NCBI GenBank assembly: GCA_964016885.1
Contig: OZ024743.1
Span: 316,572,001 to 316,636,000, forward strand
DNA: 64,000 nt
DNA from: Eledone cirrhosa
Lineage: Eukaryota
Direction: 5' to 3'
Shown: positions 30,898-31,321 of the stretch, in pieces
Layout of the letters: every line of letters starts with the position of its first letter
How positions within the stretch are numbered: the stretch's first letter is position 1
Program-made: the position numbers and the translations under genes
The notes under the pieces: model-generated
Database searches by the model: none
What the model was told of the DNA's origin: nothing
Seen by the model: only the letters and a program-made list of their open reading frames with translations

Positions 30898-31321
30898 CTA
30901 AATAGTGAAAATCACAAACAACAGAGCTAGTAGTAATAACATGTAGTTGATTACTACACCAAATGGAGCAGCATTACAGCCTACAGCCATCTTGAACACA
31001 ATAACATGTCTCTGTGAATACACCAGCTTCATCCCAAGCCCACTGGCAACCCCAAGCAACACCATCATATGTTCTGCTGGCACAACTTCGAGTTATCTTG
31101 ATCCAACCATTCCATCCAGGGCTTTGCTGATACCTTTTCATGCAAAACTGCCCAGGTACATTTGCTTCAAAGCTATTGCAATCAACCATTGCATTAACTC
31201 CTGTATCAAAGGATTCAGTTGAAGGACAAGAAAGATCTTCATTGCTGTCACACTGGTAGCACTGTATGGCAATACCCGCGGGTATATAAGCCAACGCAAT
31301 TAAAAATAAAAAGCACTTCAT
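30898..31321 (-). CDS. Intronless Ly6/uPAR three-finger-fold protein (quiver/sleepless-like). Ancestrally 138 aa and GPI-anchored; a 7-bp duplication truncates it to 115 aa (30974-31321)
   Basis: Signal peptide MKCFLFLIALAYIPAGIA, IQCYQC start, 10 Cys in the mature part, CYCxxDGC end. Removing one TACAGCC copy (30975-30988) restores ...DGCNAAPFGVVINYMLLLLALLFVIFTI*. Confidence 0.85.

Follow-up and report, generated by a model that had tools for sequence, protein, structure and literature searches.

The window analyzed here, a stretch of 64,000 nucleotides from Eledone cirrhosa (contig OZ024743.1), carries on its minus strand a short open reading frame (ORF) of the Ly6 type, which belongs to a processed pseudogene, likely dead and likely made by a long interspersed element (LINE) of an RTE family that would have primed at the tail of a short interspersed element (SINE) within the 3' untranslated region (UTR) of the parent message. 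The locus has lost the introns of its parent; it is one of four copies, all of which end at the same tail without poly(A); the parent is transcribed past this tail; and a frameshift is private to the window copy (Table 1).

The ORF (30974-31321) encodes a product of 115 residues, which ends in DGCRL* and matches the Pfam family QVR (PF17064) with an E-value of 9e-13. It begins with a hydrophobic stretch, and its mature part contains the ten cysteines of the LU domain (signal peptide and glycosylphosphatidylinositol (GPI) signal are called here by hydropathy only). After Cys10, a tandem duplication, TACAGCC-TACAGCC, the sole exact tandem 7-mer within 30601-31380, shifts the frame; at the level of the assembly, this is the disabling change of the window copy. 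The heptamer is single in the parent and in the sister copy on chromosome C3, the duplication being private to the window copy. Beyond it, the hydrophobic tail is still readable in another frame, as far as the stop codon at 30898, and is unchanged from the parent. The residue directly after Cys10 is Arg in the window copy; it is Asn in the parent and in 30 of 30 aligned homologues (of 42, the 12 partial or short ones being excluded), and has been called invariant for LU domains (PMC6600238). An earlier note on this DNA had pointed out the duplication, the product with its ten cysteines and N-terminal hydrophobic stretch, the tail left intact in the other frame, and the loss of the conserved Asn, all of which are borne out.

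Searching the genome of the species itself (3.0 Gb) with the ORF yields seven matches, namely the window, one each on chromosomes C3 and C10, and four ordered pieces on C1, which are exons spread over ~31 kb and separated by GT-AG introns. Spliced together, they encode a protein of 138 residues, with the Cys-Asn (CN) pair followed by a hydrophobic tail; the parent is an intact four-exon crok-like Ly6 gene on a chromosome (C1) other than that of the window (C4). What the note had taken for a Ly6 gene that lost its GPI anchor is an intronless retrocopy of this gene, a point it missed; the search for paralogues that it called for brings out this parent and three other copies. The closest database match of the window protein is a protein of Octopus vulgaris (82%), and relatives in molluscs and annelids are 58-73% identical over most of their length, several being labelled crok-like by their sources; the family is strongly conserved, unlike fast-evolving venom toxins. 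With the quiver/crooked-like Ly6 proteins, the window product shares the 10-Cys LU domain and the signal peptide, and the parent in addition the CN pair and hydrophobic tail, both of which are missing from the window copy through the loss of the Asn and of the tail. The likeness to Drosophila Crooked, which functions in septate junctions (PMC3058042), is one of family match and names.

The window copy lacks all three GT-AG introns of the parent, includes 5' as well as 3' untranslated sequence, and begins ~190 nt into exon 1 as transcribed from the parent, where it adjoins a TA microsatellite. The other copies lie on C3 and C10 (contiguous ORF matches) and on C20 (UTR only); the genome contains the UTR-SINE junction exactly five times, once in the parent and once in each of the four copies, and a protein search for older copies returned none (4 matches). 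The depth of DNA contigs over exon 4, ~4.5-8x that of the flanks in runs X4 and X2, is not a copy number and was not used. Private substitutions amount to 6 in 1094 nt (0.55%) for the window copy, 12 in 1152 for C3, 4 in 753 for C10, 2 in 431 for C20, and 5 in 1152 for the parent. No derived change is common to only some of the copies, their 5' ends are four different ones, and their flanks differ; they are thus four separate insertions, and segmental duplication among them was rejected on these same differences, including those in private changes. At three sites, all covering copies differ from today's parent and a second species carries their base, so that the copies retain the older state there (the contig of the second species is from run X5, taken as DNA by guess, and ends ~30 nt before the SINE position). 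RNA editing as the cause of one shared difference, T95A, was rejected, as the second-species contig has the base of the copies and the spliced contig that of the parent.

The window ORF contains one private substitution, which is silent, and thus no private amino-acid substitution before the frameshift. Under neutrality, the ORF would be free of amino-acid changes with P=0.24, and the 77-nt tail, whose intactness the note had read as suggesting a recent event, would be unchanged with P=0.66 at this divergence; with so few changes, neither suggests selection. Of the two fates the note had offered, the young pseudogene is upheld, in processed form, and the secreted toxin-like variant is unsupported: judged by its sequence, the locus is a young processed pseudogene and likely dead. 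It resembles the processed pseudogenes made by L1 (Ohshima 2013, PMC3747384) in being an intronless, 5'-truncated, promoterless, and dispersed copy of a messenger RNA (mRNA), but differs from them, as do its sister copies, in having no poly(A) and in ending with (ATG)n at an RTE tail within the message, at least 900 nt short of where the transcript contig ends. The sister copy on C3 (G000:C3:117729530-117729943, minus strand) retains the full open frame of 138 residues, including the CN pair and the tail, and its 5' UTR is longer; it carries W94R, at an invariant Trp, and F102L, and is the sole one of the four that could be a retrogene. The duplication of the window copy and an 11-bp deletion in the C10 copy hit the same 11 nt of coding sequence, either by chance or at a slippage hot spot. 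Of the 24 private substitutions in the copies, four are A>G on the sense strand, and T>C does not occur (P about 0.05); the four may, on this weak showing, be fossilised A-to-I edits.

All four copies stop at the last base of the SINE in the parent's 3' UTR, and none has poly(A). This SINE appears to have the bipartite build of the Ceph type, with a tRNA-like head (a weak match), a piece from the RTE 5' end, and an RTE 3' tail, of which 54 nt in the parent are 96% identical to the RTE end; these are also the parts of the Ceph-SINEs and other bipartite RTE-derived SINEs (Kojima 2018, PMC5786205), whose cited heptamer CCTTGGG is resembled by CCTTGAG here. The terminal repeat is (ATG)5 in the window copy and has 8, 7, and 7 units in the others; in the parent, it is (ATG)3 plus a degenerate unit. 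The copies carry the uncommon bases of the parent's SINE at 30575, 30585, 30412 (three of the four), and 30291, sites at which the majority base of the family makes up 89-99% of contig depth and differs from the parent. At 30291, 12 nt before the repeat, the family base accounts for 99% of the depth; the base is C in the parent and three of the copies, and T, of the CpG type, in the window copy. As the rare bases of the parent's SINE are thus found in the copies to within 12 nt of the repeat, copying began on the parent's own tail; a start on the transcript of another SINE, followed by a template switch, was rejected for the same bases.

The tail lies within the transcript of the parent. Run X3, whose kind is not on record, behaves as RNA: the intron is without cover, and a contig of 1007 nt spans all exon junctions. 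Another contig of this run begins 55 nt inside the tail and extends at least 920 nt beyond that tail. The 908 nt that follow the tail are single-copy in the genome, a search with them giving one self match and one weak 53-nt match. All evidence from X3 consists of contigs from this one run.

The candidate partner is an RTE family with 166,245 first-look candidates, of which 150 were scored, many with open frames of 1024 residues. All four of the copies retrieved share the same tail, at 0.13-0.29% divergence from one another, and the one copy scanned has endonuclease and reverse transcriptase domains; by these sequences, the family is young, large, and equipped with intact members. An RTE is expressed in octopus brain (PMC9115989), and the terminal repeat has been proposed to act in priming (PMC6007223). 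The RTE ORF further has a PHD-finger match after the reverse transcriptase domain, and ends inside the hairpin region of the tail, where its stop codon immediately precedes (ATG)n.

In the mechanism we favor, the RTE protein would bind the hairpin of the tail embedded in the SINE, and its enzyme would nick TA-rich DNA and prime at the internal (AUG)n; slippage may then lengthen (ATG)n in the copies, and an early stop of copying would give the four different 5' ends. The promoterless window copy would be left to drift, the duplication being among its first 7 private changes. Ordinary mRNAs are considered out of reach for LINEs that depend on their own 3' tail (PMC3747384); four independent copies that end at an embedded RTE tail are a natural, testable case of how such a LINE could duplicate host genes after all. 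More broadly, retrocopying in octopod genomes dominated by RTE LINEs may be licensed in cis by a sense-oriented, RTE-tailed SINE in the 3' UTR, largely regardless of expression, with RTE priming internally, a proposal we hold tentatively and consider possible rather than probable. If expression alone were the driver, housekeeping genes should lead in retrocopies, as they are reported to do in mammals (Farre et al. 2016, PMC5199112). For RPL21, family and DNA searches turned up a pair of linked genes, with no copy dispersed elsewhere; TCTP gave one partial, exon-sized match and RPS3A two neighbouring partial matches, again with no dispersed copy. RPS7 was uninformative, its search matching nothing, not even its parent. 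The three informative controls support a licence in cis, within the limits of a small sample. The two RPL21 genes (G000:C19:14.16 Mb) are inverted relative to each other, have uninterrupted coding sequences, and are 90% identical.

Several points limit the case for priming by RTE at the SINE tail, and for a silent copy. Target-site duplications (TSDs), considered a mark of insertions mobilised by RTE (PMC6007223), were resolved in none of the four copies, two of which lie in TA repeats, and a crude check of four full-length RTEs found none either. A hairpin is predicted for the tail of the parent, the RTE, and a copy, but in the parent and the RTE it is no stabler than in shuffled sequences (z -0.9 and 0.2). 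The transcript past the tail comes from the contigs of a single run, and a short isoform that ends near the tail is possible. No contig with the alleles of the window copy is listed in X3, but contigs drop minority alleles, and parent-only contigs are thus weak evidence that show little on the silence of the copy. The housekeeping controls are few, one of four failed, and family searches overlook UTR-only copies. Both the missing TSDs and the ATTAAA hexamers shortly downstream of the tail in the parent would fit a template that stops at the tail, be it a short isoform or a cleaved RNA, or else chance priming on (AUG)n by a different reverse transcriptase (Penelope-like or L1-like); in either case, the tail would be an end point and not a recognition signal. 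Even jointly, we consider these two versions unlikely: all four copies end in the manner of RTE, with lengthened (ATG)n and neither downstream bases nor poly(A), the resemblance of the tail to the end of an active RTE extends over its 54 nt, and a transcript contig bridges it.

A duplication that exists only in the assembly, leaving an intact young retrocopy at this locus, is quite improbable. It would agree with the listed Logan contigs of the five runs that cover the locus (X1-X5), none of which bears the duplication; these contigs lose minority alleles, however, and the deletion of the C10 copy at the same place is likewise unlisted in them, so that they are insensitive to such alleles. Moreover, a clean, non-homopolymer duplication of 7 bp is unusual as a long-read error. 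That the copy is an expressed retrogene for a secreted three-finger protein, at an early step of a path like that of snake toxins, is very unlikely. The signal peptide and ten cysteines are kept, the only private substitution in the ORF is silent, and secreted LU proteins exist (PMC6600238); yet the lack of amino-acid changes is expected under neutrality, the Asn following Cys10 is lost, and the 5' end of the parent is absent. The spliced X3 contig has the parent's alleles only, being identical to it over 502 nt, and extends 196 nt further 5' than the compared stretch, so that the start of the transcript is missing from the window copy, which is preceded by TA repeats and an RTE fragment. Among the sequencing runs that hold the locus, none is recorded as RNA, and a restriction-site-associated DNA sequencing run (X6) covers the SINE part only; neither has a bearing on expression. 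Snake three-finger toxins share with the product an LU-type cysteine pattern without membrane anchor, but are described as expressed, duplicated, and positively selected (PMC6600238), none of which is shown by the window copy: in place of a toxin-like gene expansion with rapid amino-acid change, there is one parent gene, and not one private amino-acid substitution. A sequence search of the PDB gave a single irrelevant match (E 0.2), and thus no solved toxin structure related by sequence; the AlphaFold model of the product is of low confidence (predicted local distance difference test, pLDDT, 51; predicted template modelling score, pTM, 0.26).

The locus is thus unimportant as a toxin candidate, but may matter as the record of a mechanism. 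Processed pseudogenes, RTE-tailed SINEs, and Alu-aided retrocopying are already known. An Alu or B1 embedded in a 3' UTR likewise appears to raise the chance of retrocopying, by a statistical link for which delivery to L1 by SRP9/14 has been proposed as the route (Farre et al. 2016, PMC5199112); in the present case, each copy has its 3' end precisely at the LINE-derived tail of the SINE, and an RTE is the partner. In snoRTE (PMC7245038), cargo is mobilised through a shared RTE tail, as is proposed here; unlike in snoRTE and the Ceph-SINEs, however, the cargo here would be the spliced mRNA of a protein-coding gene, situated upstream of a single genomic SINE copy, and not a fixed SINE family. 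Outside mammals, the elements behind gene retroposition are described as still to be identified by Tan et al. 2016 (PMC5131818), who found long terminal repeat (LTR) elements. An incomplete literature search, mostly of titles and abstract openings, found no publication that describes repeated copying of spliced mRNAs from an RTE tail inside them, be it for RTE or for cephalopods. If the proposed licence in cis is real, new SINE insertions would decide which genes duplicate, and an invertebrate would possess an engine of gene retroposition that is neither L1 nor LTR.

Table 1. Features of the retrocopy and its surroundings in the window (positions of the forward strand).
Feature	Position	Strand	Remarks
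Entire intronless retrocopy of the C1 crok-like Ly6 mRNA	30265..31376	-	5'-truncated; ends in (ATG)5
Frameshifted ORF, 115 residues, DGCRL* end	30974..31321	-	parent exon junctions fused at ~31275, ~31112, ~31062
7-bp tandem duplication	30975..30988	.	private to window copy
Out-of-frame remnant of the parent's hydrophobic, GPI-signal-like C-terminus	30898..30973	-	unchanged from parent
Proximal 3' UTR	30603..30897	-	derives from the last exon of the parent
SINE of the parent's 3' UTR	30265..30602	-	putative tRNA-like head, body, RTE 5' piece, RTE 3' tail; in all four copies
tRNA-like SINE head	30535..30592	-	Rfam tRNA E 0.1, 20.3 bits, under gathering score 29
RTE 5' UTR-like segment	30346..30397	-	83% over 53 nt on the parent's SINE; position mapped by alignment
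RTE 3' tail with hairpin and (ATG)n	30263..30318	-	98% over 56 nt to full-length RTE end
TA-rich microsatellite beside the 3' end	29620..30264	.	target site, any TSD hidden
TA-rich microsatellite beside the 5' end	31377..31436	.	without parent promoter sequence
Separate neighbouring insertion of the same RTE family	31437..32039	-	3' fragment and inverted 5' UTR piece

In the neighbouring RTE insertion, the inverted piece of the 5' UTR is 87 nt long and is joined to the 3' fragment, so that the whole resembles a 5'-inverted insertion. At 1133-3527, 21832-23996, and 34094-37068 lie long fragments of LINEs more distantly related to the young RTE, with which they share 66-69% identity. Four tandem units of ~4 kb fill ~6000-21000; every unit contains a TA microsatellite, part of a SINE, and an older LINE fragment. 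A satellite extends from 38000 to ~61700, with units of ~505 bp that are 99% alike and contain a variable T run (based on 38000-46000). An ORF of 121 residues on the plus strand (28921-29286) has no Pfam match and ends near GGIYFLDAPG, which resembles a Helitron/PIF1 helicase motif. Elsewhere in the genome, a SAP-family search gave 14 matches, none identifiable as Ku70, and seven similar N-terminal SAP-domain exons are clustered within 600 kb (G000:C8:28.95-29.55 Mb).
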